From positions 1-61,662 of IMG/VR virus record IMGVR_UViG_3300042343_000382: 61,662 bases of DNA. One strand, written 5' to 3'. This document shows positions 21,407 through 58,089 of the stretch, piece after piece (the first letter of the stretch is position 1; each line of letters starts with the position of its first letter). The notes beneath the pieces were generated by a model. The model was not told the origin of the DNA. It saw only the letters and a list, made by a program, of their open reading frames with translations, and searched no databases. The stretch is from a virus. Lineage: Duplodnaviria > Caudoviricetes. The position numbers and the translations under genes are program-made.

Positions 21407-22990
21407 TTACGCTCGTGTTAAGGTTATAATCGCGTTGGTGCTTAGTATCGTGGTGGCTACACTGACCGCGTTCTTCAGCGCGTTCTTCGTCACCTTCAGC
21501 GGATCTATTATCCCCATCCCGAACATATCACCGTAGCACTCATTCTTCACGTCGTAACCGTGCCCATGATCGTTCACGCTCGACATCACCTCGTAGCCGT
21601 CCTTACCCGCGTTGTCCATTATCTGCAGCAGCGGTGACTGTATCGCCCAGCCAACGATCTGCATCGCGGTGTACTGGTCGTGGCTTATGTGCTCCATATT
21701 TTCATCCGCGTACTCAATAATATCAGACGCTATATTAAACAGCGCCACACCACCACCTGGTAGTATGCCCTCCTCTAGTGCCGACCTTACAGCACAGACA
21801 GCGTCATCAACCCTGTCGTACCTCTCCTTCTGCTCCACGTCCGAGCCACCTCCAACGTATATAACTCCAACACCACCTGTAAGTGACGCTATACGCTCCT
21901 TTAGGGCGTCCCTCTCGTTCTTCCTCGTTGAGTTGTTGTGCTGTATCCATAATTGTTCTACACGCTCTCTAATCGCCTCATTTGAGGTCTCGCTTCGAAC
22001 TAAGACTGTGCTGTCCCTTCCGACGATCACCCTGTCTGCCTTCCCGAGGTGGTCTATTGTGATTAGACTCAGGTCATCACCAGTCTGCTCGCTGAAGTAC
22101 TTAGCACCAACCGCAAGCGCGATGTCCTGCATCAGCTCCTGCTGCTTGTAGCCAAACTGTGGCGGCTGAATGTTACAGAACTTCAGGTTGTTATGAGCCA
22201 CGTTTGCAGCCAGCGTGTTGATCACGTTGCCAGTACACGGTCCAATTATCAATAGCTTCTTCTGCCCGTTTATGATCGGCTTCAGCACGTTCTCTATAGA
22301 CAGTATGTTACTTATCTCCTGGTCGGTCACCATAATGTACACGTCCTCCATTATGCACTCCTCCTTCTTCATGTCATTCACGAACAGCCTGCTCGTGTAA
22401 CCACGTCCTATCTTTATACCATTAGTCACCTCGCTGTAGGTCTTATCCGTCTGCGAGTTCTCCACTGTAACGATGCCCTCCTTACCGACCTTGTTGTACG
22501 CGTCAGCGATAATAGCACCCAGCTCCCTGTCGTTATTAGCAGATATAGAGGCTACGTCCTTGAGCGTCTTACCACTCACCTTCTTGCTCATCTTCTCCAG
22601 GCTCTTTACAACACCATCGACAACAGTGTTCACGTTACGAAGCACCTCCGTCGGGTTGTTCCTCTCCGTGATGAACTCGTTGCCCCTTGTGACCATAGCC
22701 TCAGTCAGCACAATCGCTGTGGTTGTACCGTCACCTGCGCTGGTTGCAGTCCTGTCGGCCGCCTCCTTCATCATACGCACCGCAAGGTTCTCAACTGGAT
22801 CCTTTAGGTTTATAGATTTAGCAACCGTGACACCGTCCTTTGTAATAGTTATACCGTTAGTGTGGTTCTGTGATTCAATTAGCACCGTCTTACCTCTCGG
22901 TCCTAACGTGCTCTTTACCGCCTTGCTGATCGTGGTTATACCATTTACCAGCTTGTCTCTTCCTTCCTTGTCAAATACTAAGTCGTTCAT
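21407..22990 (-). CDS. groEL: Chaperonin GroEL
   Basis: TLGPRG, ITKDGVTVAK, AGDGTTTA, EEGILPGGG, GIIDPLKV. Confidence 0.97.
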   Translation of the reverse strand: MNDLVFDKEGRDKLVNGITTISKAVKSTLGPRGKTVLIESQNHTNGITITKDGVTVAKSINLKDPVENLAVRMMKEAADRTATSAGDGTTTAIVLTEAMVTRGNEFITERNNPTEVLRNVNTVVDGVVKSLEKMSKKVSGKTLKDVASISANNDRELGAIIADAYNKVGKEGIVTVENSQTDKTYSEVTNGIKIGRGYTSRLFVNDMKKEECIMEDVYIMVTDQEISNILSIENVLKPIINGQKKLLIIGPCTGNVINTLAANVAHNNLKFCNIQPPQFGYKQQELMQDIALAVGAKYFSEQTGDDLSLITIDHLGKADRVIVGRDSTVLVRSETSNEAIRERVEQLWIQHNNSTRKNERDALKERIASLTGGVGVIYVGGGSDVEQKERYDRVDDAVCAVRSALEEGILPGGGVALFNIASDIIEYADENMEHISHDQYTAMQIVGWAIQSPLLQIMDNAGKDGYEVMSSVNDHGHGYDVKNECYGDMFGMGIIDPLKVTKNALKNAVSVATTILSTNAIITLTRA

Positions 22991-30469: not shown

Positions 30470-31201
30470 ATGAGCAAAGTAATAGAACAACTAAGAAATG
30501 ACGCTGACTACTATGGCGACTACGGTTCTAAATACCTGTCTAACAGTTCAGTAGGAGTTCTGCTGTCAAACCCAAAACTATTTGGAGTTAAACAACCTCC
30601 TACAGTTCCAATGCTTAGAGGAAGTTATTTTCATACAGCTATATTAGAGCCACACAAGTTAGATAGCTTTGAAATTGTTGAGGCATCAACAAGGTCAACA
30701 AATATATACAAGGACGCTGTATCACACTCATCATCAGAAATTTTGTTGTTAAAAAATGAGGTAGAAGATTTAGAGGAAATGATAAAAACAATAAAATCTA
30801 ATTTTTATTTTTATGAAAATATATACAGAGAGGGTAATATATTTGAAGAACCAGCAGTCGGAGAAATTTTTGGATTGCCTTTTAAAGGTAAGGCAGATAT
30901 AGTGAGTGAAGATATTCTTATAGATATAAAAACAACATCAAGCGTTAGAGATTTTCGTTACTCAGCTAAGAAATATAACTACGATAGTCAATGTTATATA
31001 TACAGTCAACTATTTGGAAAGCCATTAGTGTTTTATGTTATAGACAGCGCGACTAAAGAATTAGCTGTATACGAGCCTAGTGAAGACTTTATATTAGGTG
31101 GTCGTGACAAGGTGATGAGAGCCATCGAGGTGTACAAGAAGTTCTTTAGCAAGGACGCGACTGAGGATATTAACAACTACTTTATACAGGATACATTATG
31201 A
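30470..31201 (+). CDS. PD-(D/E)XK exonuclease (RecE/exonuclease VIII-like)
   Basis: LSNS, GSYFHTAILEP, KGKADIV...DIKTT, YNYDSQCYIY. Confidence 0.85.
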   Translation: MSKVIEQLRNDADYYGDYGSKYLSNSSVGVLLSNPKLFGVKQPPTVPMLRGSYFHTAILEPHKLDSFEIVEASTRSTNIYKDAVSHSSSEILLLKNEVEDLEEMIKTIKSNFYFYENIYREGNIFEEPAVGEIFGLPFKGKADIVSEDILIDIKTTSSVRDFRYSAKKYNYDSQCYIYSQLFGKPLVFYVIDSATKELAVYEPSEDFILGGRDKVMRAIEVYKKFFSKDATEDINNYFIQDTL

Positions 31202-31461
31202 GTTCTGAGCAGATAGTTAAGGAGTTGGTTGATAAGTTTAACGAGACCTCTGCAAATAATAAGAAATTTTATTTTACATTTGTGCAGAAGGAGGAGTATA
31301 TGAACATAGAGTTCGGCATCTCTGAGGAGAACTGCTTCGTATTCAAGGAGTACATAAAGAAGAACGCGGACGCAGACGCACTTAGGGAGAAGTTATTCAC
31401 GAGGTTTATAAACGACGTGTTTACTAGGATGTTTGATCTGATAAAGAGGAATAAATTTTAA
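31198..31461 (+). CDS. Hypothetical protein
   Basis: 87 aa. Confidence 0.7.
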   Translation: MSSEQIVKELVDKFNETSANNKKFYFTFVQKEEYMNIEFGISEENCFVFKEYIKKNADADALREKLFTRFINDVFTRMFDLIKRNKF

Positions 31462-31469
31462 AATAAAAG

Positions 31470-31568
31470 TGTAGTGTGGCGGAATGGTAAACGCTAAGCG
31501 TAGTAAGGTAAGCTGACAGACGACGTAAAACAACTTGCCGTGCAGGTTCGAATCCTGCCACTACACCA
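31470..31568 (+). ncRNA. tRNA-like RNA 1 (no canonical anticodon arm)
   Basis: Acceptor TGTAGTG/CACTACA, D-arm TGGCGGAATGGTAAACGC, T-arm GCAGG-TTCGAAT-CCTGC, 3' ...ACCA; middle is a linker plus GGTAAGCTG/CAACTTGCC hairpin. Confidence 0.75.
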
Positions 31569-31642
31569 AAAAAATCGTCTTGGTAAAACAAGTTAAGTGA
31601 TGCACGTAAGTCATAGCAGGTTAAGCGATATCCTGCAAATTG

Positions 31643-32002
31643 GGGGGTGACTGGTTTTGACAGGTTACCAATAATTAATACAATCAGCCAGAGAGACAAC
31701 TGTAAACTAAGGTGAATTTTTTAAATGGCAATACAAACACTCGTGTAGTATCTCTAGGAGACAACGCACAAATTGAAGCTAACATGAACAAAGTATTCTC
31801 TTTATTGAGAGAAGAAGTTGGTGTAGCAGCCTAAACATTCAAAGGATTTCTCTGTTAGATTAAACAGAGTGGTGGTTTCGCTGACTTAATTGTCGGCCCT
31901 AGAGTGCGCCTGTAGACTCTTTAAATAAGTATAGGGACAAAAGCTGTATAAATTGTATTAATGAACGTAGTTTGGACGTGGGTTCGACTCCCACCACCTC
32001 CA
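31643..32002 (+). ncRNA. ssrA: tmRNA
   Basis: 5' GGGGGTGACTGGTTTTGACAG, 3' GGACGTGGGTTCGACTCCCACCACCTCCA, G3:U70 and A discriminator, 11-bp helix ATTAATACAAT/ATTGTATTAAT, internal frame ending ...VAA*. Confidence 0.93.
31727..31834 (+). other. tmRNA tag reading frame (35 aa)
   Basis: After TTAAAT: GNTNTRVVSLGDNAQIEANMNKVFSLLREEVGVAA*; resume codon inferred from analogy to the Bacteroidota GGC resume context. Confidence 0.7.
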
Positions 32003-32127
32003 CTAATGCAGTTCAATTCTGCTCGGTTACTGAGAATTGGTATCTAAATGAGGCTCGAAACCTCCTCGTATGTCGAGATTAGTAGCGCTAGGTGGCGTCA
32101 GTATGACAGCTTGGAAAGACAAGCAAA
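32003..32127 (+). ncRNA. Candidate multi-hairpin RNA between tmRNA and tRNA-like RNA 2
   Basis: GCAG-TTCAATT-CTGC, CTCGG/CTGAG, GAGG-CTCGAAA-CCTC, CTCG/CGAG, GCTTG-GAAAGA-CAAGC. Confidence 0.5.
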
Positions 32128-32234
32128 AGTCAAGTGGTGTAAGTGGGAATGAATACCACCTAGGGATAACATAGTGACTGAGATAGCATCTCTTAATTTG
32201 TCACTGGATGAAGGTTCGAATCCTTTCTTGACTA
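32128..32234 (+). ncRNA. tRNA-like RNA 2 (no canonical anticodon arm)
   Basis: Acceptor AGTCAAG/CTTGACT + A, D-like TGGTGT/ATACCA, T-arm GAAGG-TTCGAAT-CCTTT; middle is a linker plus AGTGAC/GTCACT stem enclosing GAGAT/ATCTC. Confidence 0.7.
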
Positions 32235-32259
32235 CTATTAATATTTAAATTTAATTACA

Positions 32260-32523
32260 ATGGAAAAAATTTTTGCAGATGGTTTCGTATTCAAGAGAAA
32301 CGAAAAGGCACCAGACTTCGTGGTGGGAAACATCAGTGTTAAGGTTGAGGAGGCTGTAGCCTTCTTGAAGCAACACACTAAGAACGGATGGGTTAACCTA
32401 CAGGTTAAGAACTCTCAAGGTGGTAAGTACTACATCGAGTTGGACACGTTCGAGCCTAAGGCACAACAGCAGGCTCCTGCTCAACAGCCAGAGCCAGTGA
32501 ATGATGGTACGCTACCATTCTAA
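32260..32523 (+). CDS. Putative single-stranded DNA-binding protein
   Basis: Small beta-rich core, Q/P linker, tail ending DGTLPF; near Sak and exonuclease. Confidence 0.65.
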   Translation: MEKIFADGFVFKRNEKAPDFVVGNISVKVEEAVAFLKQHTKNGWVNLQVKNSQGGKYYIELDTFEPKAQQQAPAQQPEPVNDGTLPF

Positions 32524-32530
32524 ATTAACC

Positions 32531-32555
32531 AAGCCCCTTTCACTAGGGGCTTTTT
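32531..32555 (+). terminator. Rho-independent terminator
   Basis: AAGCCCC-tttcacta-GGGGCTT followed by TTT. Confidence 0.85.
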
Positions 32556-43076: not shown

Positions 43077-43212
43077 AAAGTCACAAACAATAACGCCAAT
43101 GCAGAGGATAAAGATAGTGATGAACTACCTTCACCTTAGGGGCGGAAATTCAGAAAGGGTAAACAATGTTTATAGAAAGATTGTTGAAGAGAAATTTAAG
43201 GGAGCTAATTAG
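43069..43212 (+). CDS. Hypothetical protein (47 aa), last plus-strand gene
   Basis: MGRKSQTITPMQRIKIVMNYLHLRGGNSERVNNVYRKIVEEKFKGAN. Confidence 0.6.
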   Translation: MGRKSQTITPMQRIKIVMNYLHLRGGNSERVNNVYRKIVEEKFKGAN

Positions 43213-43219
43213 CTCCCTT
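43198..43219. terminator. Palindrome at convergence point, probable bidirectional terminator
   Basis: AAGGGAGCTAATTAGCTCCCTT, perfect 22-bp palindrome containing both TAG stops. Confidence 0.7.
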
Positions 43220-46200
43220 TATAAATTTAATGTATTCTTTCTTAGTCATATCACCTGGTTTGACTTCTTGAACTCCTTTATATTTTTTTATTTTATATTG
43301 ACCTTCCATAACATTTTTATACATTTGCCTAGCGTCTTGTGTATCTAATGCTTGAGATTTCACAGCTTCCTTTAATTGTTTTGTGAATTTAGTAATCTCT
43401 TCTTTAGTTAATTGGTCTATAGAACTTCTTTCAAAAGTCTCATATACATATTGTAATTGTTTTTTTTCTGGTTTACTTCCAAAGAACGCCTTTACAAAAG
43501 GTAATCTTCTCAAAGAAAACTCATCCTTATCTTTCATTTCTTTCCCGTGTACAGATTCTACAACTTCTTTAGCAGCTATCTTACCAGTGTATCCTACGTC
43601 AGATATAAACTTACCAGTTCCTCCTCCAAGCGCATCGTAATAGTGATCTAATATCTCTGGACTAATATCTATATATCCTTTCTCCATAGCACTTCCGCCA
43701 GTCCACTCGTTTAATTTTTTAGCAGTCCATAAAGATCCTGGCCTAACTGATTCAAAATACAAGTCACTTTCTTTTTTCTTAGCTCCAAATTTAGGTTGTT
43801 CAGGTTTAATTGGAGCCCCAAAGAAATTTTTATTCTCAGATTGCTGAACAAAAGGATCAAATGCTGTCGGAGCTACTGCCTGTGACAACGTAGGCCCTTG
43901 CAATGGAGATATCTGATTGTATATAGTCATAAACATTTTTGATGTTGCCTCAGTAGCATCTTTTCTTCCAGTAGCTACATCATATGTTAAATTACCTGCA
44001 TACTTAAATACATTTAATCCATAAGCCATTGGAAGTAGTAATGGTTCTTGTTTAGAATCTTTTGGATTTACTAATACAAAATTTCTTTCTTTTATACCAT
44101 CATCTATCTTTTCATCGTCGTCATCATCTCCTCCTAAATGAGAGTTAAGCGCTGCCTCTAAAATACCATAAGCAAACATACCTCCAGCTATAGTTCTAGC
44201 TGTTTTAGATTTAGATAATGATGTCGCCATTCTTACCGTACCACTAAGTCCAGCGGTAGCAAATAAATACAGACTATCCATTAATCCTCCCCACGTACCT
44301 TTATTCTCAAAGTTTACTGTTATATTCTTAGCGGCTCTTGCTGCTTCTTCAGTAGATACTCCTGCATCTTTTAACGCCTTAAATGTACTAAGCCTTACTG
44401 ACTGTTCTACTACAGACTGAGCAAGCATAAGCGTGTTACCTAACTTATTTAAAGCTGCAGTATACATCTTCTCTCCCTTGTTTATTTTATTAATATCTTT
44501 TCTCAAGCTATCAACATACTCCTCAAGTGTTTCTTTTTGAAACCAAGAAACCTTACCACCACTATCTCTATATTCTTTAGCTAATTTAGCCCACTCAGAA
44601 TCATATTTGCCTTTTGAGTCTTGTATAATACCTTGACCTGCAGACTTTAAATTTTTAGGATTAGCTATTTGTCCTGTAACATTTTTTATATCCAAGTCTT
44701 TTATCTCTGACTGTATATTTATAAGTGCTGACTGGTAATCTCTTAAGAAGTTAGTAATCAAAAAGTTAGGGTTCATTAAAGTAGCAGTGGATCTTATCCA
44801 ACTATTTACTATATAAAGACCTCTTATACCTCTTTGAATACCTTGACTTTGAAGAGCGTCTCTCATAGCCTTATCTTTAATTTCTACATAAACTGGCTTA
44901 CCATCTACCTTTAACTCTACAGAATCATTAATTAGTTTTTGTGATGTGGTTGGTAACATATATTTTATATCGCCATTAGAATCTAAAATAGCTGTATATT
45001 TAGGTTTATGCACCTCAAATACTTCGTTATTTTTATCAAGTTCGGCAAGATTTATTAACGCTTGTGCCGCTTGGTTTCTTTCTCCTCTTGCTACTGTATT
45101 TTGATACTCAAACATAGAAGAAAATATAGGATTATATCTGTCTGTATATTTATATAAATCACTACCCTTAGCCTTAAATATATCTCTACCTTTAACACTT
45201 GCTCCTGCTCCTGCTCCTCCAGCTCTTTTTGTCATAGCCTTTTCAACTACTTGAAGAGGAACATAGTTCTTATATTGAGTCTGTAATTTATCGTATAACT
45301 CTTGATCTATAAGACCATACTTTAATTTATCGTCAAGAGAAGGTTTAATTACATTATCTCTAAACTCTTTTGCGTACTTATCAAATAATTCTTTTTTACC
45401 AGACTTCTCTACATTATCTATAATTTCTTGAGCCTGTTCGTTTGTCATACCACTACCAGCTTCTTTAAGCAATTTAACCTTTCCTTGTCCAGATATTAAT
45501 TTCTTTAACTCATTCTCGTATCTCGTTTTTAATGATTGAGTTTCAGCATTCTTTATCTTTTCATTTAAAGCGTCTACTTCTTTTTTAAAGTTTTCTTCTC
45601 TTTCAGTGGCGTTAGCTAAATTTCTTTCTTCAGCGTGCAATGCATACATATAAGTACCTAACTGGTCAATATCTACACCGTCTTTTTTAGCTCTATTAGC
45701 CCAAGACTCTTTATTACTTTTATCAAAAATTTCTTTTTGTTTATCCTCTATAATGTTTATAGTCTTTCCAACTAACAACTCAAACTTCAAGGCAACATTA
45801 GCTTCCTTAAGTATCTTTATACCTAAAGCGCCTTCCATTTGCTCTTGAACATCTTTGACTCTTATCATCTTATTTTGAAAAGCCTGTATAAATTTCTTAA
45901 GCCAGTTTTGATCTTTTAGGTCTATTAACTTAGGAGCCTGTGCTGCTTGATCAATAGCCTGAGATGTTGAGTACTTACTAACAGAATTATAGTATAGGTC
46001 TTTCTTTTGTTCTTCAGTTAAAGAATTGAAATCATTATCTTTAGACATTTCATTAAAGAAGTCATCCATATTGGCAATGCCTTTAGATATTACATCTAAT
46101 CCTTTTGCTTCCATTTCTAATGGCTTCTGAGTAGACTGATAATAATTAGCAAAATCTTTTTCTATTGAGGCTCTTTTATCTTCACCTAATAAATTAACCA

Positions 46201-49200
46201 TATCATTAATAGCTTCCTTAACAGCTTCAGCAAACTCAATGCCTTTATCCATTAACTCACCTGTCTTTTCGATAGCCTTGGCTAATGCTTCTTTCATAGT
46301 ATCAGCATCAACACCTTGTTTTTTACCACCCTCAATATTAGCCTTAAGCCAATCAGGTAAATCTAAACTTCTTACTTTATCAGCTAACTCTTTTGCTTTC
46401 TCTGTATTTTTTTTAGTTGGCTCCGTAGGTTTAGTTTCAGAAGGAATTATTTTAGATGTTGGAGCTTCAGTTCTTCTTTGTTCGGGCTCATATGCAACTG
46501 CCTCAGCATAAGCATCTTTTAATTCTTGAGATATATCAGATTCCTCAATCATTGTTGTTATCTCGTCCTGAGATAACTTAGGAAAATCTTCTCTAAGACT
46601 GTAAAGTTTGTCATAATTATTCTGAGTATTTCTCTCTTTATTTATATTATCGTAAACCTCTTTTAATTTAACATCTTTAGATTCAGGTATAATAGACTTA
46701 AACCCTTTATCTTTATTACTTACAAAATCTTCTTTGAAAGGTTTAATAATTTTATTACCTTCCATCTCCTTAACATCAATTGGTTTTAACGGCTCTGTAG
46801 TTTGCGCTCTTGTTGTATCCTTCCATTCACCTACAACCATCTTAAAACCCTTATCACCTGCAATTTTTGTAACTTGAGCAAACTGGTCATTAGGCGTAAA
46901 CGCCTGTCCTGGAAACTCTTTCTCAAACTTAGATCTAGCCTCTTCAATAAGATTTAATGGATCTGCATTAAAATCATAAACTTCAGATTCTGGAATTTTA
47001 ACCATATGAGTATTTCCAGACACTATACTCTCAGCTATATTTTCAGCTGGATAATACATAGATACTCCATTCACTCTACCAATAGCAGTTTTTTCTTCAG
47101 CTGATGTTACGTTTCTAGGATTTGTACCGTACTTATTAGGCTCAATAGTTTCTAGTGTAGTAGGTGATGTATGATAAAACACATAATTACCTTCATTGTC
47201 TTGAGTAAGGTTAGCCACATTTGAAGATGTTTCTGGAGATATGCCTTTAACTTCAACAGGCTTAATCTCCTCTACCTTAACCTCGGCAGGAGCGTTCACA
47301 CTCATCTCTTCAGCTGTAGTTTTACTACTAAGTATGTTTACTCGCTCATCCTCAACTAACTTGAATTGAGACTTTAAACTGTTTAATAAATCTTTCTTTG
47401 TATTTACATCAATAGTTTTATCATCTGTTATTTCAGAAGCCTTAGCTCTTAATTCTGACTGCTCCTTCTCTATTTTTGCAATCCTACTCTTACCAGCATC
47501 AGACATACTTTCTATAGAAGAAACAACCTTATTTACTATAGCTCCGCTCTCAGCATTTAATCCAGCTATTTTATTTTTAGCCACAGACTTTACCTCCTCA
47601 GAAACATTTTTATCACCTATTAATTTATTAAGGTTTAATATTTGTTTTGAGTTGTTATCTAGTGTGTTAGTGTATTCTGGTATAGCAAATGGTTTTATAA
47701 CTGCGCCAGCTATATGAGGAGATGACTGAAGCATTGAAGTCATTAGGAATGTATCCTTTAGTATATCTTCTGAGTTATCAAAAATACCTACTTCATTTTT
47801 TCCTAAAAAATATTTATTTAATGCGTTTTGTGAAACATTAGTAAACAACTCTCCAGCATTTTCTTTAAATTGATCCTTAGAGTAATCCTTACCAGTCCTT
47901 AAAAAGTTATTAAATGTAGAATTCGTTAATTCTCTCTTTAATACATCATCAGCATTTATTGCAGATGTAGCTAACCCTGCCTTCTTTAATATACCTACGG
48001 TAGGTATTTCAGACACTACCTCTGCAGCACCCCATAACAATGGTATAGAAACCATCTGTAGGTCATCATATTTAGCTGTCCCATTAAGGACCTCTTGCTT
48101 CATATCAAACCTTTTTTGTGCCATACTAGTAGCGCCCATAACTGCTAATCCTGGATTTCCAGTAGATGCAGCAACAAGATTAGGAACCTGAACAGCAAAA
48201 ACATCTGAAGACCAGTTAATAAAATCATTTACATTGTTTACGTCCTTTATGTCTTTTCTAAATGTATCACTTAATCCGCTTATATTATTTACTGTTTCTG
48301 TAACTAACTCGTCCTTAGATTTTTTTAATCTATTTATGTATTCAGGATTGTTTTCAGATTCAGGAAGTATAAAGTCAGCTATCATATCTCCAGTAGTTAC
48401 CAAGGCATTTAAAGTTCCCTGAGTAACCCTTCCAGATATGTTATACAACATATCGTAGTTTCTCTTTAACAATTCAACTTCTTCTTCAGCACTTCCGTGC
48501 TCTCTATCTAATCCATATATAGACTTATCTAACTTTTTAATATATTCAGTGTTAGATTTTATTCTATTCTCTACATTATCTATTTCATTTTGATCCTGAT
48601 TAGCTTGTTGTAATTGGTATAATCTTATGTAGTCGTTCTCTAATGATGCTAAATAAGAGTCTCTAACCTTTACTACCTTCTTAGTATTATCTTCAATAGT
48701 TTTAAGGTCATCTACCTTATTAAATTGTAGATTATTTTTTACATCCTCAGGTATAGATTCTAAGTAGTCATCAGTTTGAGAGTTTCTAAGACTCTTAGCT
48801 TTATTTTCTATAGCTAACTGATAAGCCTTAAAGTTTACCTCTTCTTCTGTTAATTTTGAATTCTTAGGGTCTGATTTAACCTCTGAAATTTCTTTAACTA
48901 TTGGATTTTTTTCTATTTGAACTGCACTTATATCTTGAGGAGTTAAGTCCGCTAGTTTACCTATGCCAGATACAACAGTATTATATGCAGATGATAGCCC
49001 AGATTTTATAACATTTAAAAATCCAGTGTTATTAACCTCTGCATCTACTTCTTCTTTTGCTTTTGATGTATAATTATTTAAGTCTCTTACACTATTGAAC
49101 TGATATGTAAATACATCATCAACAGGTTCTTCTATAGGGGTCTTCTTTTTAAGAGCTTTAAGACGTTCAAGTTCCTTTCTGTTTCTCTCCTGCTCCTCTA

Positions 49201-49585
49201 CATTAAACTTCTGACCTAACTTTAAATTTGTTTTCTTTTCAAGATACTTTATAGATTGCTCTGTATCAATAGGAGTAGATGGAGGAACGAACGCTTCTGA
49301 TTTAAGTCCGTCTCCATACATAATAGATGTAGGTCTTTGTTGTTGCTCCTGTCCGAATAGCTTAGTTGGACCACCTAAAGCAACCGAAGCCTGCGCTCTT
49401 GTTGGTGGCTCTGTATCCGATGAAGTACCTTGCTGAATAGGTCTCGTAGGAGATACCCCAGCTTTTTCTTGTGGAGTGGATTCTGAAGATCCTTTTTTTT
49501 TTATAGGTATACCAAACTCATCAACAGATTTTTTGGCAACAGCGGGCTTTTTAATTGGAATTCCGAATTCGTCAACTTCGTCCAT
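43205..49585 (-). CDS. Large internal virion (ejected) polyvalent protein, LPD38-like C-terminus
   Basis: 2126 aa helical; NP.F..TNF.RD, A.NITVNF...G, LP..YG, N.NFFGAPI.P motifs; follows tail genes. Confidence 0.7.
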   Translation of the reverse strand: MDEVDEFGIPIKKPAVAKKSVDEFGIPIKKKGSSESTPQEKAGVSPTRPIQQGTSSDTEPPTRAQASVALGGPTKLFGQEQQQRPTSIMYGDGLKSEAFVPPSTPIDTEQSIKYLEKKTNLKLGQKFNVEEQERNRKELERLKALKKKTPIEEPVDDVFTYQFNSVRDLNNYTSKAKEEVDAEVNNTGFLNVIKSGLSSAYNTVVSGIGKLADLTPQDISAVQIEKNPIVKEISEVKSDPKNSKLTEEEVNFKAYQLAIENKAKSLRNSQTDDYLESIPEDVKNNLQFNKVDDLKTIEDNTKKVVKVRDSYLASLENDYIRLYQLQQANQDQNEIDNVENRIKSNTEYIKKLDKSIYGLDREHGSAEEEVELLKRNYDMLYNISGRVTQGTLNALVTTGDMIADFILPESENNPEYINRLKKSKDELVTETVNNISGLSDTFRKDIKDVNNVNDFINWSSDVFAVQVPNLVAASTGNPGLAVMGATSMAQKRFDMKQEVLNGTAKYDDLQMVSIPLLWGAAEVVSEIPTVGILKKAGLATSAINADDVLKRELTNSTFNNFLRTGKDYSKDQFKENAGELFTNVSQNALNKYFLGKNEVGIFDNSEDILKDTFLMTSMLQSSPHIAGAVIKPFAIPEYTNTLDNNSKQILNLNKLIGDKNVSEEVKSVAKNKIAGLNAESGAIVNKVVSSIESMSDAGKSRIAKIEKEQSELRAKASEITDDKTIDVNTKKDLLNSLKSQFKLVEDERVNILSSKTTAEEMSVNAPAEVKVEEIKPVEVKGISPETSSNVANLTQDNEGNYVFYHTSPTTLETIEPNKYGTNPRNVTSAEEKTAIGRVNGVSMYYPAENIAESIVSGNTHMVKIPESEVYDFNADPLNLIEEARSKFEKEFPGQAFTPNDQFAQVTKIAGDKGFKMVVGEWKDTTRAQTTEPLKPIDVKEMEGNKIIKPFKEDFVSNKDKGFKSIIPESKDVKLKEVYDNINKERNTQNNYDKLYSLREDFPKLSQDEITTMIEESDISQELKDAYAEAVAYEPEQRRTEAPTSKIIPSETKPTEPTKKNTEKAKELADKVRSLDLPDWLKANIEGGKKQGVDADTMKEALAKAIEKTGELMDKGIEFAEAVKEAINDMVNLLGEDKRASIEKDFANYYQSTQKPLEMEAKGLDVISKGIANMDDFFNEMSKDNDFNSLTEEQKKDLYYNSVSKYSTSQAIDQAAQAPKLIDLKDQNWLKKFIQAFQNKMIRVKDVQEQMEGALGIKILKEANVALKFELLVGKTINIIEDKQKEIFDKSNKESWANRAKKDGVDIDQLGTYMYALHAEERNLANATEREENFKKEVDALNEKIKNAETQSLKTRYENELKKLISGQGKVKLLKEAGSGMTNEQAQEIIDNVEKSGKKELFDKYAKEFRDNVIKPSLDDKLKYGLIDQELYDKLQTQYKNYVPLQVVEKAMTKRAGGAGAGASVKGRDIFKAKGSDLYKYTDRYNPIFSSMFEYQNTVARGERNQAAQALINLAELDKNNEVFEVHKPKYTAILDSNGDIKYMLPTTSQKLINDSVELKVDGKPVYVEIKDKAMRDALQSQGIQRGIRGLYIVNSWIRSTATLMNPNFLITNFLRDYQSALINIQSEIKDLDIKNVTGQIANPKNLKSAGQGIIQDSKGKYDSEWAKLAKEYRDSGGKVSWFQKETLEEYVDSLRKDINKINKGEKMYTAALNKLGNTLMLAQSVVEQSVRLSTFKALKDAGVSTEEAARAAKNITVNFENKGTWGGLMDSLYLFATAGLSGTVRMATSLSKSKTARTIAGGMFAYGILEAALNSHLGGDDDDDEKIDDGIKERNFVLVNPKDSKQEPLLLPMAYGLNVFKYAGNLTYDVATGRKDATEATSKMFMTIYNQISPLQGPTLSQAVAPTAFDPFVQQSENKNFFGAPIKPEQPKFGAKKKESDLYFESVRPGSLWTAKKLNEWTGGSAMEKGYIDISPEILDHYYDALGGGTGKFISDVGYTGKIAAKEVVESVHGKEMKDKDEFSLRRLPFVKAFFGSKPEKKQLQYVYETFERSSIDQLTKEEITKFTKQLKEAVKSQALDTQDARQMYKNVMEGQYKIKKYKGVQEVKPGDMTKKEYIKFIKGAN

Positions 49586-52848: not shown

Positions 52849-55800
52849 TTATTCACATGAAAAACATAGACCCTCTAAAGGAGTAACATCACCATTTGAA
52901 GCAACTGCATTTGACGTGCATACTGAACTACCTGTAATTTTTATTTTATACTCACCAGTAGTTCCTGGAAATAGTACAGTACCACTAGGATTAAGATAAA
53001 CAACACTTGATGAAGTTGCTATTTCTTGCCCTGGTGTTGATGTATTAATATTTGATACCCAACAAGGAGTATCTAATGTTGCATCACAACCATCTGTAGG
53101 ATCTGGTGTTCCAGATATAAAAGAAGGAAAAAATGATACACAACAATTCACACCTGTTGTTGCGGCCCAAGTAGCACTTTCATCACCACCAGTTAATGTA
53201 ATAGTGCCTTCTTGTGCACAAACATCAAGAGAGGTTGGTGCAGATTCTCCATCTCCTACTTCAGAATTTACTAGAACACCTTCACAATTAAAATATGAAA
53301 ACTCTGTAATACCTGTAACAGCCCCAGATGGTTCAACATAAGTCACAGTGTAACATTCACAATCGATAATTCCGCAACAATCTATCTCAGACACATCTAT
53401 TGTTCCAGGATCTCCTGCACCTTCTGTTACACTACCTGTTTTAGCACAAATTTGTACTGGAGTTTCAGTAAACACTGTAATAGATGCAGGTTCATTTGTG
53501 AAACAATCTATATAGTCAAATTCTGTACTGCCTATAGAAGATAAAATATAACAAGTGCACCCGCATCCAGGACAAGGGGTAGGATCTAAAAGAACGCCAG
53601 ATAGAAGCTGTCTGTATGTACCGTCAAGTAAATATAGTCCGTCTGGAGCTAACTCTGTCTGTAGCTCGTCTAACCAAACACTTGTAGCGGAGTCGAACGA
53701 GTCTGAGTCTATATAATAGCTTCCAGTAGAGCACGCGTCACAGCATAATGATAAAGGATTGCTCTCGTGGTAGCATAGCTCTATCTCCAATAGACTTCTG
53801 TAATCCCATACTAAATACAAATAATTAAAACCCGTTAAAACAACCTTACTTATAACCGCCTGATATGTTCCAGTTGTAGGGATAATTTTTGTTAATAAAG
53901 GCAACAACTCACTTGGAGTATATAAGTTATTAGAAATTAAATACTTAAATGAGTTAAAAGCTGGATCAAAATTAAACGTATCACCAGCTCTCTTATCTGA
54001 AACTAGTGTTATATCACTTTCGTTTGCTGGTATTATACCTTGAGATAGTCCACCAGACTGACTTGCATATAACGAAACACCATCTTCTTCCATAATTATA
54101 AAGTCAGTACTTAAAGGACTGCTATAGCTTCCCAAACTCCACTTGTACTGGTTATGTATTGTCTGATCCTCATTACCAGGATTATTGTAAACAACTCTAT
54201 ATACGGTTATAGAATCAACTATATTTACGCACGAAGTGCTTGTAGAATAAGACGCATTGATAGATGTTATAGTAATTCTAATCACGTTAGGAAGAGCCTC
54301 TGTCTTTTGAAATACAAATGTATAGTCATCAGGCTCATCTAAATTGTCATTCCATATAACACCATCATCGTACTCAACCGTAATATCAACCTCTCCTTCA
54401 AACAACGTAAGGCTTACGGTAACCTCTCCTATCTCGTCCCCTATCTCTACATCAAACTCATACGTCCCGCTTACATTCTGTTTAGATATAGTAACACCAC
54501 ACCCGTAAACGTCTAGCTCTGTAGGCATAGCTGTCTCGGTAAGATGAAGTACGTACTCGTCCATATAAGGATCGTAACCACCTATCTTAAAGTAGTTCTG
54601 TGAGTTCTTGAACTCATCTCTGAACCAGTACTTCATACCCATGTCAGATACAACACTAAGCGCATCACTCTGAGCTGATCCACCTCTTAAGTTTAATACT
54701 GAGTTACGCTTAATATCTGTAAAGTAAACCTCACCACCAAACACAGCAAAGCTCTCTGGATTGTTACTAATTCCGTAGTCCTCAATCCTTGCGATCTGAG
54801 TACCTATAACCTCTGGTATAGACGCTATATTACCTCCACCAGCTGAATCAGAAAGCAAATTCTTTCCAGCTAACACATATGATATCTTATCCTCTTGAAG
54901 TACAAGTATATCTGTTCTTCTTGCGTACAGTCTGTTTATCGGTCCAAAAGACTTCTCTAAATCCTTAAAGTTTGCTAAGGAAAGATTAAACTCGTTTAAT
55001 TTATTAATATTTGTCTCAGCATTATATATTCCGCTATACGTTATAGTTGCATACCTGTCAGAGGACATATAGTCCTCCTGAGCCACAGCAGTTACACGCT
55101 CACCTAAATAAAAAGGGGCTCCAACTATAGAGTCATTTATCTTGTAAGACTCTACGCCATTTGCAAAACTAAAGCAGTCAAAGAAGTTAAGCGTAACAAT
55201 AGCAGGATCTGTAGATGTTTGATCTGTATCTCCAGGGGCATCGCCACTCATATGATAACCATTCACAATTGGAAAGCTGTCACTTCCCTCGTAGTATATC
55301 TCTCCGTCAGCATCAAGAGATTCTGTCTCAAAAACAAATAACCCTGTAGCCTTCTGTATTGTTATTGTTCCAAAAGTGTCCGATCCTTTATAGTCTGGAC
55401 CATCACAAGAAGGTGTACCTGATCTAGCTAAAAAAAACAATCCACCTGTTGGTACAGTTGGGGAATCTGGATTTAAATACTGCCTAAAAAACTGAAACTT
55501 ATTAACCGAAGCTTCTGCAGGGAATAAGGGATAAACAATAGGATTAATAGGTGATCCAGTCCCTGTTCTTTTATAAGGCACTGATAAGGATCTATCATAT
55601 TCATTAGTATTAACAGTATTGTCTCTTGACGTTACCACACCTTTTTCAAAATCAATACCCTCTCCCTGACAAAAAAGATAAAAGTTATCATAGTCCTGAC
55701 TAGCTACTATTGTTTTTTGAAACTTATACGTTCTACCACCACATTTAGAACCTCTGTGGTTTCTATTCATACCTATATCAAACTTTATAAGACTTCCAGC

Positions 55801-58089
55801 AGGTATGTTGTGAGGTATAAATTGTTGATTAGTTGAGCTAACTGGATTGGCTGGTATAAAATCAGGATTAACGTAACTTAAATTCCATCCTGCTGCTTGA
55901 TAATTACGAGGTGTTTTATTAGTACCTTCTATAGAAACAAACGATTCCTTTTCGTATATAGCCTCAAAATTACTAGCTCTAATCTTCATATATACTCCGC
56001 TAGGCTCGTTTATTATATTTGAAGTGTTTGGACCGCTAATAAAATTATTTGATTGAGCTTGTACGTCTAAAATATCTATCGTTGTTAAAACTTCAAGTGC
56101 TCCATTGGAGTCTCTCTTTACTACCAATCTTTCACCAACTCTTGCCTTGCTTATATTCTCTCCTTCTAATTTAAACCAACTAAAACCATTTCCATCTTGA
56201 AAGAATAAATTAGTGTATAAGGTTTCATATTTTGATCTTGATGGTTTAACAACAAATTTGTATCTCTCAGCCCAAGATGGCGCTAAATTATTTATTGTTG
56301 CTACTATATAATTTTTTTTATCAGAAGTAGACGCTGGAAAAAACACTGTATTGTTGTTACAAACAAGCGCTGTCGTGCTTCTTAAATACTTATCTTGATA
56401 AACAATACCTACCTCGTAATCTCTGTTACTATGTAAACTTCTTTTGCTATTTAATTTAGATAAAACAGCCGTAGTTCCAGTGTCACTTAAGTACTCATAA
56501 GCGTATAGCACTGGGTTTGGATCATCAGTTCCTGAGAACTTTATTGCTGGTATCTGTATTTTTATAATGTTTGGTTGAGATGGAGATGATATTATTGTAA
56601 ATCCTTGATCTATAGAGGTTATACCTGTGCCATTAACATCCCATTCTGGAGGTGAAGTCTGTATAGTAGTTAAAGAGCAATTAAAATCATCGGTTAATGA
56701 AAACCCTTCTGCACATTCAGTTATAGGTTTATGAACATAGATTTTCTCTATAAAAAATGGATCATTAGCTAACGCGTAAGCATTTGCATAGTCTTGAGTT
56801 ATATTAAAGTTAAATGTTTCTTCGTAAGAATTAAGTATGCCTGCGCTTTCATAAGTTGGATCCCCAGCAAAGTCATTGTGAAAAAGGCTGAATTGTATTG
56901 ATAGGATCGAACCATTTGTAATATCTACACCTGTAAAGTCTAACTCTATAATTGTATCAACGATAGTACGTGAGCCACCTAAGGTATACTGTCCAGGTAA
57001 AGGTCTTACCACAATCTCTTCCTCTAAATTATCTTCACTTTCAGCAGAAAGTGTATAATCTATAACGGTATCTATATCATAACCATCTACATAGTTTCCA
57101 TATATAAGCCTATTACCCATAGTGGTCTGAGACTTAGCTGTTAAAGGTACGTTATCAAAAAGTCTTGTAAGCTCTGAATTTGGAAGTACTGTGTATATTT
57201 TTTTATTATCGAACTGAATGCTCTTTATTTGGTTATCTTCCCATCCATTATCAAGCTTATCAAACTTCTCGATTATATTAACTATGCTTGAGTCTGAAAG
57301 CTTAAAGCAAACATCAATACCTACAACATTTTTTCCTCCAGTGTTAAACGATATATTATAACTATTAAACACATTCACCATAGATCCGTTAGTGTATGTT
57401 GTATAGTCAACAAAAAAACTTTCAGGCTCGAACGCTATATCACTAAACTGAGATAAAGCACTGTACTCTCCATCTCTATATTTATATCTATAAGAAAACG
57501 ATATAAACCTTTCACTCATATAGTTCTCATCTCCACTTATAATAAAAGGAGATATTTCTGGAGCCTCTATAGGAGGTTGAACTATAACTGATATATCATC
57601 ATCAGTTATGTTATCAATTCCAAGGGTTGGGTATAGGTATGGTATATTTACATTTATTTTTCTAGGTGGGTTATAGTTGTCTGTCCAAAATAACAGATTA
57701 TCTATAAGATCAATACCATTGATTAAAAATTCAGTACTAAAATTAAGAACTGTTGTAGATATAACGTGATAAATAAGTGTGCCTGTTCTTTCGTTGTAAG
57801 ACAGAACCATATCCACATTTCCTGGATCTGTTACGAACCAGTATATTGTCTCGTGCTGGCTATCCTCATACGCACCAATACATCTTGCGTCAGTAGAAAG
57901 TTCTTGACCTTCGTAAAGAATAGATACAATCTTAGTATTACCTAATGAATTCTCAATAGCACCAACGCTATTGTTTTCAGTAGATCCTATCCTTATATTT
58001 AACGCGTCAATATATTCTCCATCTGGAAGAACTCTCTCGTCAAGCGACTTATTCATTCTTCCCTTAAGGAACGTAGTATTTAAATCCAT
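52849..58089 (-). CDS. Tail stabilisation/nozzle protein
   Basis: F.KGRMNK.LDER..P.GEY.DALN, LFWTD..NPPRKIN, GNRLIYGNY, YGISNNPESFA; Cys-rich C-terminal repeats. Confidence 0.75.
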   Translation of the reverse strand: MDLNTTFLKGRMNKSLDERVLPDGEYIDALNIRIGSTENNSVGAIENSLGNTKIVSILYEGQELSTDARCIGAYEDSQHETIYWFVTDPGNVDMVLSYNERTGTLIYHVISTTVLNFSTEFLINGIDLIDNLLFWTDNYNPPRKINVNIPYLYPTLGIDNITDDDISVIVQPPIEAPEISPFIISGDENYMSERFISFSYRYKYRDGEYSALSQFSDIAFEPESFFVDYTTYTNGSMVNVFNSYNISFNTGGKNVVGIDVCFKLSDSSIVNIIEKFDKLDNGWEDNQIKSIQFDNKKIYTVLPNSELTRLFDNVPLTAKSQTTMGNRLIYGNYVDGYDIDTVIDYTLSAESEDNLEEEIVVRPLPGQYTLGGSRTIVDTIIELDFTGVDITNGSILSIQFSLFHNDFAGDPTYESAGILNSYEETFNFNITQDYANAYALANDPFFIEKIYVHKPITECAEGFSLTDDFNCSLTTIQTSPPEWDVNGTGITSIDQGFTIISSPSQPNIIKIQIPAIKFSGTDDPNPVLYAYEYLSDTGTTAVLSKLNSKRSLHSNRDYEVGIVYQDKYLRSTTALVCNNNTVFFPASTSDKKNYIVATINNLAPSWAERYKFVVKPSRSKYETLYTNLFFQDGNGFSWFKLEGENISKARVGERLVVKRDSNGALEVLTTIDILDVQAQSNNFISGPNTSNIINEPSGVYMKIRASNFEAIYEKESFVSIEGTNKTPRNYQAAGWNLSYVNPDFIPANPVSSTNQQFIPHNIPAGSLIKFDIGMNRNHRGSKCGGRTYKFQKTIVASQDYDNFYLFCQGEGIDFEKGVVTSRDNTVNTNEYDRSLSVPYKRTGTGSPINPIVYPLFPAEASVNKFQFFRQYLNPDSPTVPTGGLFFLARSGTPSCDGPDYKGSDTFGTITIQKATGLFVFETESLDADGEIYYEGSDSFPIVNGYHMSGDAPGDTDQTSTDPAIVTLNFFDCFSFANGVESYKINDSIVGAPFYLGERVTAVAQEDYMSSDRYATITYSGIYNAETNINKLNEFNLSLANFKDLEKSFGPINRLYARRTDILVLQEDKISYVLAGKNLLSDSAGGGNIASIPEVIGTQIARIEDYGISNNPESFAVFGGEVYFTDIKRNSVLNLRGGSAQSDALSVVSDMGMKYWFRDEFKNSQNYFKIGGYDPYMDEYVLHLTETAMPTELDVYGCGVTISKQNVSGTYEFDVEIGDEIGEVTVSLTLFEGEVDITVEYDDGVIWNDNLDEPDDYTFVFQKTEALPNVIRITITSINASYSTSTSCVNIVDSITVYRVVYNNPGNEDQTIHNQYKWSLGSYSSPLSTDFIIMEEDGVSLYASQSGGLSQGIIPANESDITLVSDKRAGDTFNFDPAFNSFKYLISNNLYTPSELLPLLTKIIPTTGTYQAVISKVVLTGFNYLYLVWDYRSLLEIELCYHESNPLSLCCDACSTGSYYIDSDSFDSATSVWLDELQTELAPDGLYLLDGTYRQLLSGVLLDPTPCPGCGCTCYILSSIGSTEFDYIDCFTNEPASITVFTETPVQICAKTGSVTEGAGDPGTIDVSEIDCCGIIDCECYTVTYVEPSGAVTGITEFSYFNCEGVLVNSEVGDGESAPTSLDVCAQEGTITLTGGDESATWAATTGVNCCVSFFPSFISGTPDPTDGCDATLDTPCWVSNINTSTPGQEIATSSSVVYLNPSGTVLFPGTTGEYKIKITGSSVCTSNAVASNGDVTPLEGLCFSCE

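Follow-up and report, generated by a model that had tools for sequence, protein, structure and literature searches.

Organization of the locus

We analyzed a stretch of 765 nucleotides (nt; positions 31470–32234, plus strand) in the complete virus record IMGVR_UViG_3300042343_000382 of IMG/VR, all 61,662 bp of which are called the window below, and found that it holds five non-coding RNA (ncRNA) genes, namely a transfer RNA (tRNA)-like RNA (TL1), a structured spacer (Y), a transfer-messenger RNA (tmRNA), a second structured spacer (X) and a second tRNA-like RNA (TL2). An earlier reading, made from the letters without database searches (hereafter the sequence-only reading), had placed these elements in the same order, and both order and coordinates stand. 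TL1 lies at 31470–31566, Y at 31567–31642, the tmRNA from 31643, X at 32003–32127 and TL2 at 32128–32234. Several short frames overlap the stretch in a mechanical list of open reading frames (ORFs), the longest being a TTG-started minus-strand frame of 91 amino acids (aa; 31424–31699).

TL1 (31470–31566, plus strand) and TL2 (32128–32234, plus strand) both display a 7-bp acceptor, a D arm with GG and a T arm with a UUCRANY loop; the perfect acceptor and the UUCGAAU T loop of the sequence-only reading are seen in each, and neither has a canonical 5-bp anticodon stem with a 7-nt loop featuring U33 and an anticodon. In TL1, the acceptor UGUAGUG/CACUACA, a Leu-type D arm, the T arm GCAGG-UUCGAAU-CCUGC and a discriminator C surround a non-canonical 46-nt centre that replaces the anticodon and variable arms, and the same frame recurs with a different, 72-nt centre in a relative (L004/L288). 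TL2 combines the acceptor AGUCAAG/CUUGACU and A73 with an enlarged D arm, a 12-nt linker followed by a long hairpin, and the T arm (G)AAGG-UUCGAAU-CCUU(U). The prior description of both centres as a linker plus long hairpin agrees with the minimum-free-energy folds, although their energies are unremarkable (z −0.86 and −1.06), and the claim that the two RNAs are unrelated in sequence was overstated, as the tRNA frame is common to both.

Run at default settings over the whole record, ARAGORN called the tmRNA as the sole gene, so that the reported lack of canonical tRNAs holds. With introns allowed and thresholds lowered, it returned only strained models (a 12-nt "anticodon loop", mismatched stems, a 33-nt "intron"), and we dropped an intron-bearing tRNA interpretation because these models are implausible. 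TL1 is the single match to the Rfam tRNA family RF00005 across the genome (39.4 bits, cut-off 29), and it clears the cut-off only because 37 nt are skipped at the place where the model has its 17-nt anticodon arm. No Rfam family was matched by TL2, X or Y in the window stretch 31350–32350 at E ≤ 10, or by X or Y in Rfam scans of other loci.

The tmRNA (31643–32005, plus strand) is recognized both by ARAGORN (31643–32003) and by RF00023, which matches it over its full length (model positions 1–374; 97.7 bits against a cut-off of 47), in line with its earlier assignment. Its tRNA-like domain bears the G3-U70 acceptor pair, read directly from the sequence, its tag frame ends in ...EEVGVAA and a stop, and CCA is not encoded (ACUA). 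A gene for the SmpB partner does not accompany it, the search of the 61,662-bp record with PF01668 being empty as the sequence-only reading had anticipated; presumably, the phage tmRNA uses host SmpB. Related tmRNAs are found in Cellulophaga phages, and those of Calle_1 and phi38:1 are likewise full-length one-piece molecules with G3-U70 and without a phage SmpB; unlike them, the window tmRNA is embedded in an array of RNA genes, with Y directly before it and X after it.

Two further features of the tmRNA concern its tag. The tag frame is long (window 31712–31834; 22–24 residues by ARAGORN, ...AQIEANMNKVFSLLREEVGVAA), and its start, AQIEANM, recurs in Cellulophaga phage Calle_1, whose tmRNA has the tag AQIEANMEAVNAILNLEVAVGV.

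X and Y as predicted structured RNA families

X (32003–32127, plus strand; 125 nt), delineated by covariance model R2, pair counts and identity to Cellulophaga phages, opens with P1, a T-arm-like hairpin (GCAG-UUCAAUU-CUGC), followed by UCG, the long-range strand UACU, GAG and AAUUGGUA; its 3′ part comprises P2 (GAGG-CUCGAAA-CCUC), a small hairpin, P3, the long-range strand AGUA, UGAC and P4 with the loop GAAAGA. Common to the family are P1, which is invariant, then UCG, a variable hexanucleotide, GAG, UGGUA (resembling a D loop), the second T-loop hairpin P2, one or two variable hairpins, UGAC and P4 with the loop GAAAGA; the four bases before UGAC pair with the 3′ four of the hexanucleotide to form a long-range helix. 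GAG-type and UGGUA-type motifs are present in all 30 distinct copies, and the second T-loop hairpin in 23 by a strict pattern. Over 20 sequences, this long-range helix has 4/4 pairs changed on both sides and 100% of its cells paired, and P2 and P4 have 3/4 and 4/5 pairs so changed. Paired cells amount to 95.7% in total versus 78.2% in shuffles, none of 500 of which reaches the score, and sliding the partner columns of the helix lowers pairing to 38–50%. A stem CUC/GAG lies outside such testing because both its sides are invariant. We accordingly count X, by this comparison of copies, as a conserved structured RNA family. Model R2 scores the window copy at 127.8 bits (E 3e-25), a match by construction since the window is a seed sequence.

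A 19-mer of X occurs in six viral contigs and a 20-mer from its 5′ part in 38. In most of these contigs, X begins 0–3 nt downstream of the discriminator of a preceding tRNA, tRNA-like RNA or tmRNA, and many of the copies belong to tRNA arrays. Window positions 31977–32127, which comprise X and the 26 nt at the 3′ end of the tmRNA, are 80% identical to Cellulophaga phages phi19:3 and phi13:2, in which the counterpart begins in the 3′ end of a tRNA-Cys and extends about 125 nt downstream. Cellular genomes (~185,000 species genomes) yield 11 X matches: in three the similarity to X carries on, one consists of a lone P1 within a tRNA array, and seven are unrelated sequence. The solitary P1, with its UCG, lies in the tRNA-Gln/tRNA-Thr gap of a 14-tRNA array on a contig of a Bacteriovoracaceae metagenome-assembled genome (L043:7195–7248). 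At another locus (L123:2326–2420), the last hairpin of Y is followed by UGAC and a GGAAAGAC-loop hairpin, which is the 3′ module of X, and then by a tRNA-like RNA; this 3′ module precedes a tRNA-like RNA in 9/178 cases and seems, from such arrangements, to be portable.

Y (31567–31642, plus strand; 76 nt) consists of C-A7-UCG, a small hairpin, a second hairpin (hp2) and a third (hp3, 31616–31636; GCAGG-UUAAGCGAUAU-CCUGC). It was first spotted away from the window, at the loose end of an RNA-library contig, as a near copy of the final hairpin of the first spacer, and a 21-nt motif of hp3 with three degenerate letters is found in 113 viral contigs. All 65 aligned copies share one layout: C-A(5–9)-UC(G), a hairpin present in some copies only, hp2 with no fixed sequence, a near-invariant hp3 (GYAGG-UUAAGCGAURU-CCURC) and 3–6 nt up to the next gene. 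In hp2, 5/5 pairs are changed on both sides, with 88.6% paired in the model-fitted alignment and 66% in a plain MAFFT alignment; pair 2 of hp3 is UA in 35, CG in 24 and UG in two copies, a link that the search pattern did not impose, and a pseudoknot AUCG/CGAU is invariant on both sides and hence outside covariation testing. These changes mark Y, too, as a conserved structured RNA family on comparative grounds. Of 83 distinct contexts, 59 have a canonical tRNA abutting Y upstream and 55 have one abutting it downstream; the gene abutting downstream is a tmRNA in four, as in the window. With the covariance model, each of 100 loci shows a single strong Y, so Y behaves as a single-copy gene and not as a generic inter-tRNA spacer. 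The window copy has the family features (model R1), with TL1 and the tmRNA flanking it, and is itself a seed sequence. In 50,697 GenBank phage records, Y gave only chance-level matches at the sensitivity used. One Y-bearing phage array also contains, among its tRNA genes, an Rfam freshwater-1 RNA (RF02979; L059:9512–9573, minus strand; 74.3 bits versus a cut-off of 72).

A tRNA-frame family with a hypervariable centre

The X and Y loci also hold RNAs with the frame of TL2, AGUCAGG...CCUGACU-A, with the Leu-type D arm UGGCGGAAUUGGUAGACGC, the T arm ACAGGUUCGAAUCCUGU and centres that are wholly different. We define this AGUCAGG-frame family of tRNA-like RNAs (TLs) by the acceptor AGUCAGG/CCUGACU or a compensated variant, A73, C74, the T arm NCAGG-UUCGAAU-CCUGN and a non-canonical centre. 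TL2 belongs to it by its compensated acceptor, A73, C74 and centre, with a T stem (GAAGG/CCUUU) that departs from NCAGG/CCUGN; TL1 shares with it only features of the D arm, T arm and centre. With all loci pooled, the DNA retrieved contains 178 distinct copies, of which 158 have A73, 142 U at position −1, 167 GG in the D region and 79 the T arm as given, whereas CCA is encoded in seven and not in the other 171. Centres range from 18 to 156 nt, and one to seven copies occur per locus. Across these copies, the acceptor sequence is, by comparison, conserved beyond the needs of pairing, and the frame is best read as being under sequence-specific selection with its centre free to vary.

A 16-mer of the frame occurs in at least 120 viral contigs, and the counts in this paragraph apply among the matches listed. 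For 96 of 139 TLs there is no canonical tRNA within 300 nt, and 73/120 TL loci lack any canonical tRNA; Y is present in 1/100 loci and X, weakly, in 4/100, while a TL and a tmRNA occur together in 1/120. As most TLs stand alone, they cannot be merely signals for the excision of spacers; we read them as products in their own right. Clustering of 830 neighbouring ORFs gave no family in more than 8/120 loci, and we rejected the idea of a conserved protein partner.

Two other candidate roles were also set aside. The frame 16-mer has no exact match in 401 sampled Bacteroidota genomes, and among its near-matches, 10 of 25 one-mismatch sites and four two-mismatch sites in one further genome were checked, none of which overlaps an ARAGORN tRNA; mimicry of a host tRNA by the frame was rejected on this basis. 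Within the phage genome, the longest complementary match to the TL centres, X or Y is 12 nt, compared with 9–14 nt in shuffled controls, and an antisense function directed at that genome was discarded as not above chance.

Several TLs show individual peculiarities. ARAGORN calls a tRNA in 31/161 of them, with more than 20 different or impossible anticodons, for instance a 94-nt Ile(gat) at L007:4789–4882, a Val(gac) at L332:2322–2414 and a Ser(act) at L333:2339–2412, and such labels in phage annotations are probably wrong. A subgroup (L112, L118, L163) has a hairpin inserted in the D loop (GGCGGAA-[GGUUAGGGGUGUCCCCUGACG]-UGGUAGACGC). Three centres (L023:6123–6247, L146:1510–1601 and L085:8666–8758, reverse-strand coordinates) enclose a second full T-arm-like hairpin and a UGGU loop; they resemble the inner part of X, and X and the TL centres may, from this likeness, share modules.

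Gain and loss of modules among relatives

The 87-aa ORF that begins 26 nt past TL2 (32260–32523, plus strand, from the ORF list) is encoded at 60 related loci. A tRNA-like RNA lies directly upstream of it in about 23 of these, a lower bound because the detector requires a perfect acceptor. These positional counterparts include the compensated acceptors UGUCAGG/CCUGACA, GGUCAGG/CCUGACC and AGUCAGA/UCUGACU, and their subgroups display compensatory changes and swaps of GNRA loops (GUAA, GCAA, GAAA) in the centre hairpins.

Among the 60 loci, X is also present only in the window, L288 (which shares a contig with L004) and L309 (which shares one with L007), and the combination of Y and tmRNA only in the window. 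At L004, TL1 is joined straight to X, which is followed by TL2, and Y and the tmRNA are missing. L359 has a near-identical TL2 alone, in which a single stem change from G-C to G-U keeps the pairing. In run X18, one contig, probably of DNA, connects 31365 with 32266 through 126 other letters and comes, by this alignment, from a relative without the RNA cassette. Because these relatives differ in their modules, the cassette looks to have grown by the addition of modules at a position usually occupied by a single TL.

Proposed maturation of the array

We propose, with a probability of roughly 0.55, that the locus is a co-transcribed array of five ncRNA genes that was built by cassette-like module gain and is matured by host tRNA-processing enzymes. 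The modules would have been acquired between genes of an early operon for replication and recombination, at a site where relatives have a single tRNA-like RNA, and the array would be transcribed together with its flanking genes. TL1, the tmRNA and TL2 would each be cut by host RNase P at the 5′ end and by a 3′ tRNA-processing activity past the discriminator; for the latter cut an enzyme of the RNase Z type is expected because CCA is not encoded. CCA would be added by the host enzyme; the record has no phage CCA-adding enzyme. These cuts would yield the tmRNA, TL1, TL2 and the conserved, structured small RNAs X and Y, and would detach the upstream from the downstream messenger RNA.

We infer this maturation from the features of the frame and from the exact abutment of the elements to tRNA ends. 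In other phages, the spacers lie exactly between tRNA genes, so that processing of tRNA ends would release X and Y. The RNase P-friendly features of the TL family (U−1, the 7-bp acceptor, the elbow and a CCA that is mostly not encoded) lend the proposal indirect support. A terminator scan found no terminator-like site from the upstream ORF through the cassette to 32535; the earliest such hairpin on the cassette strand is at 32535–32549, past the downstream 87-aa ORF. The punctuated ncRNA operon of the sequence-only reading is hence supported in part and indirectly, by conserved single-copy spacers between tRNA ends, a frame suited to RNase P and the lack of an internal terminator. The spacers, however, are as conserved as the TLs and are not filler, and the TLs, most of which are solitary, cannot be processing signals only.

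RNA-library contigs also bear on the array. Contigs from two freshwater RNA libraries match, at 100% identity, the interior of the tmRNA, all of X (with the 3′ end of TL1 before it) and TL2, the last over 32128–32214 with zero differences. In two runs, the flanking coding sequence lacks contig coverage, and as contigs these data cannot rank expression.

A number of points weigh against the proposed array. The library data are contigs and not reads, and as such can neither show ends nor exclude DNA; they span the TL1/X and Y-like/TL2 junctions, being either precursor or DNA carried over into the library. With C73 and a different acceptor, TL1 is not a clean member of the AGUCAGG-frame family, and base −1 is A in the window TL2 and G in TL1, as opposed to the U of the family. 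Since most TLs elsewhere are not beside X, Y or tRNAs, punctuation of arrays cannot be what TLs do in general. The promoter scan lacks validity for the type of host concerned. Finally, the folding energies of all four non-tmRNA elements are ordinary relative to shuffles (z −0.56 to −1.66), so that the case rests on comparison with relatives and not on thermodynamics.

A bolder extension, which we regard as unlikely, is that the AGUCAGG-frame RNAs constitute a phage-wide class of natural tRNA scaffolds that would be matured by RNase P and Z, receive CCA and perhaps be leucylated. Their hypervariable payload of 18–156 nt could act as a guide, an aptamer or a sponge; Y and the two-elbow RNA X would belong to the same toolkit and likewise act in trans, with the host tRNA and translation machinery or tRNA-directed defences as targets.

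Alternative explanations

The TLs could instead be leucine-accepting, or at least CCA-tagged, non-decoding tRNA mimics that once charged affect translation or steps that depend on aminoacyl-tRNA; they may bear a loose analogy to the tRNA-like domain of tmRNA or titrate leucyl-tRNA synthetase or EF-Tu. This, too, we consider unlikely. The Leu-type D arm, the prevalent D-region GG and A73, the intact T loop and an acceptor conserved beyond pairing needs all speak for it. According to PMC9976931, the minimum for leucylation in E. coli is A73 plus the D/T tertiary pairs, the anticodon and variable arms are dispensable and C73 abolishes the reaction. The TL frame offers that minimum, though the rules are those of E. 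coli and may not be those of the host. TL1 has C73, however, and A1-U72 is unusual; charging is consequently a bold reading for the TL2-type RNAs and does not extend to TL1.

It is quite unlikely that X, Y or both are self-cleaving ribozymes that form the 3′ end of a preceding CCA-less tRNA, in the manner of theta ribozymes, which resemble the ribozyme of hepatitis delta virus (HDV). Both elements do start 0–3 nt from a discriminator base and have invariant nucleotides at the junction (C-A7-UCG in Y, C-U/G-A-AUGCAG in X), and theta ribozymes of Bacteroidota gut phages, according to PMC10879173, are ≤5 nt from phage tRNAs, of which only 4.5% encode CCA. Yet no Rfam ribozyme family (HDV-like/theta, hatchet, pistol, twister and hammerhead included) matched window positions 31350–32350 at E ≤ 10 or 14 other X, Y or TL loci at the gathering score. 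Furthermore, an HDV-type P1 is impossible in Y because its 5′ end is an A tract, arrays have a single X or Y despite many CCA-less tRNAs, and X lacks a tRNA in front of it at L003 and L013.

As the sequence-only reading had also suggested, the anticodon-less mimics might serve as decoys for defence enzymes that target tRNAs, with the phage tmRNA rescuing ribosomes that have stalled, a scenario we hold to be distinctly improbable. The frame retains the parts read by acceptor/T-arm/elbow enzymes, multiple copies with different centres occur per genome, up to seven at one locus, and here a tmRNA is adjacent. Against this, an anticodon nuclease needs the anticodon loop, so that a mimic without it is poor bait; among the matches listed, moreover, the single co-occurrence of TL and tmRNA in 120 TL-pattern loci and a largest neighbour cluster of eight loci offer neither a recurrent tmRNA nor a conserved neighbouring gene.

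That the TLs are decaying tRNA pseudogenes or attP remnants, with neutral filler as spacers, was already disfavoured and is very improbable: centres are unalignable between paralogues and ARAGORN still calls some TLs as tRNAs, but the frame is kept over 178 distinct copies with biased U−1 and A73 and compensatory changes, X and Y covary, the near-matches to the frame retrieved from sampled Bacteroidota are not tRNAs, and the record has no tyrosine integrase, on which count we rejected the attP version.

Comparison with known systems

Species 1 and 2 RNAs of phage T4 are small stable RNAs inside a phage tRNA cluster. Like them and like freshwater-1, X and Y are embedded among phage tRNA genes and are presumably freed by tRNA processing; their sequences and folds differ from those of freshwater-1. 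tRNA-like processing signals are known from mitochondrial tRNA punctuation, the MALAT1 mascRNA and the tRNA-miRNA transcripts of murine gammaherpesvirus, in which the anticodon region is dispensable. In the TLs, a mimic of acceptor, T arm and elbow would similarly recruit RNase P or Z to a longer transcript, but they belong to bacterial phages, conserve the sequence of their frame over hundreds of copies and are mostly solitary. X and Y resemble theta ribozymes (PMC10879173) in being conserved elements that abut CCA-less phage tRNAs, and differ from them in having no HDV-like fold or Rfam match and one copy per array.

A mini-tmRNA without a coding sequence from mycobacteriophage DS6A is reported (PMC11915505) to inhibit the host tmRNA. 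The TLs are, like it, tRNA-shaped phage RNAs without a decoding function, and unlike it they have U3-A70 in place of G3-U70, together with a D arm of the Leu type and a centre that is long and variable. YrlA and other bacterial Y RNAs similarly mimic the D and T arms and lack an anticodon; unlike in the TLs, the tRNA-like domain of YrlA is internal and its ends form the Ro-binding stem. YrlA (RF02553) had no match in window positions 31350–32350 at E ≤ 10.

Phage tRNA genes are usually read as helpers in codon usage or as replacements for cleaved host tRNAs. The present locus draws attention to three additional RNA families, widespread in uncultured aquatic phages, that would exploit the tRNA-processing pathway. 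Standard annotation misses them, with scattered anticodons from ARAGORN for a minority of TLs and nothing from Rfam for X and Y, and their mis-annotation as odd tRNAs is likely. A full-text literature search gave no description of X, Y or the TL family, though the supplement of PMC10690425, with 10,006 candidate viral RNAs, may list them. The tRNA-frame family is the most striking of the three, as it couples a near-invariant minihelix to a hypervariable centre, has up to seven copies per locus and has no fixed protein neighbour, and with it tRNA mimicry by bacterial viruses can be put to the test. X is open to study in a cultured system, the Cellulophaga phages phi19:3 and phi13:2.

Genomic setting

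Public runs that contain the stretch are mainly lake and freshwater metagenomes, and the GenBank phages that match its DNA in part are Cellulophaga and Flavobacterium phages. Upstream of the cassette, an 87-aa ORF (31198–31461, plus strand, from the ORF list) stops 8 nt before TL1 and is kept in L004 and L359; neither this nor the downstream 87-aa ORF has a Pfam match. In the wider neighbourhood, genes for a Sak annealing protein and a PDDEXK nuclease precede the cassette, and one for a primase-helicase-like protein follows it. Elsewhere in the window, we observed a chaperonin of the Cpn60/TCP-1 family (527 aa; 21407–22990, minus strand; Pfam E 2e-65) and two very long ORFs of 2126 and 1746 aa (43205–49585 and 52849–58089, minus strand).

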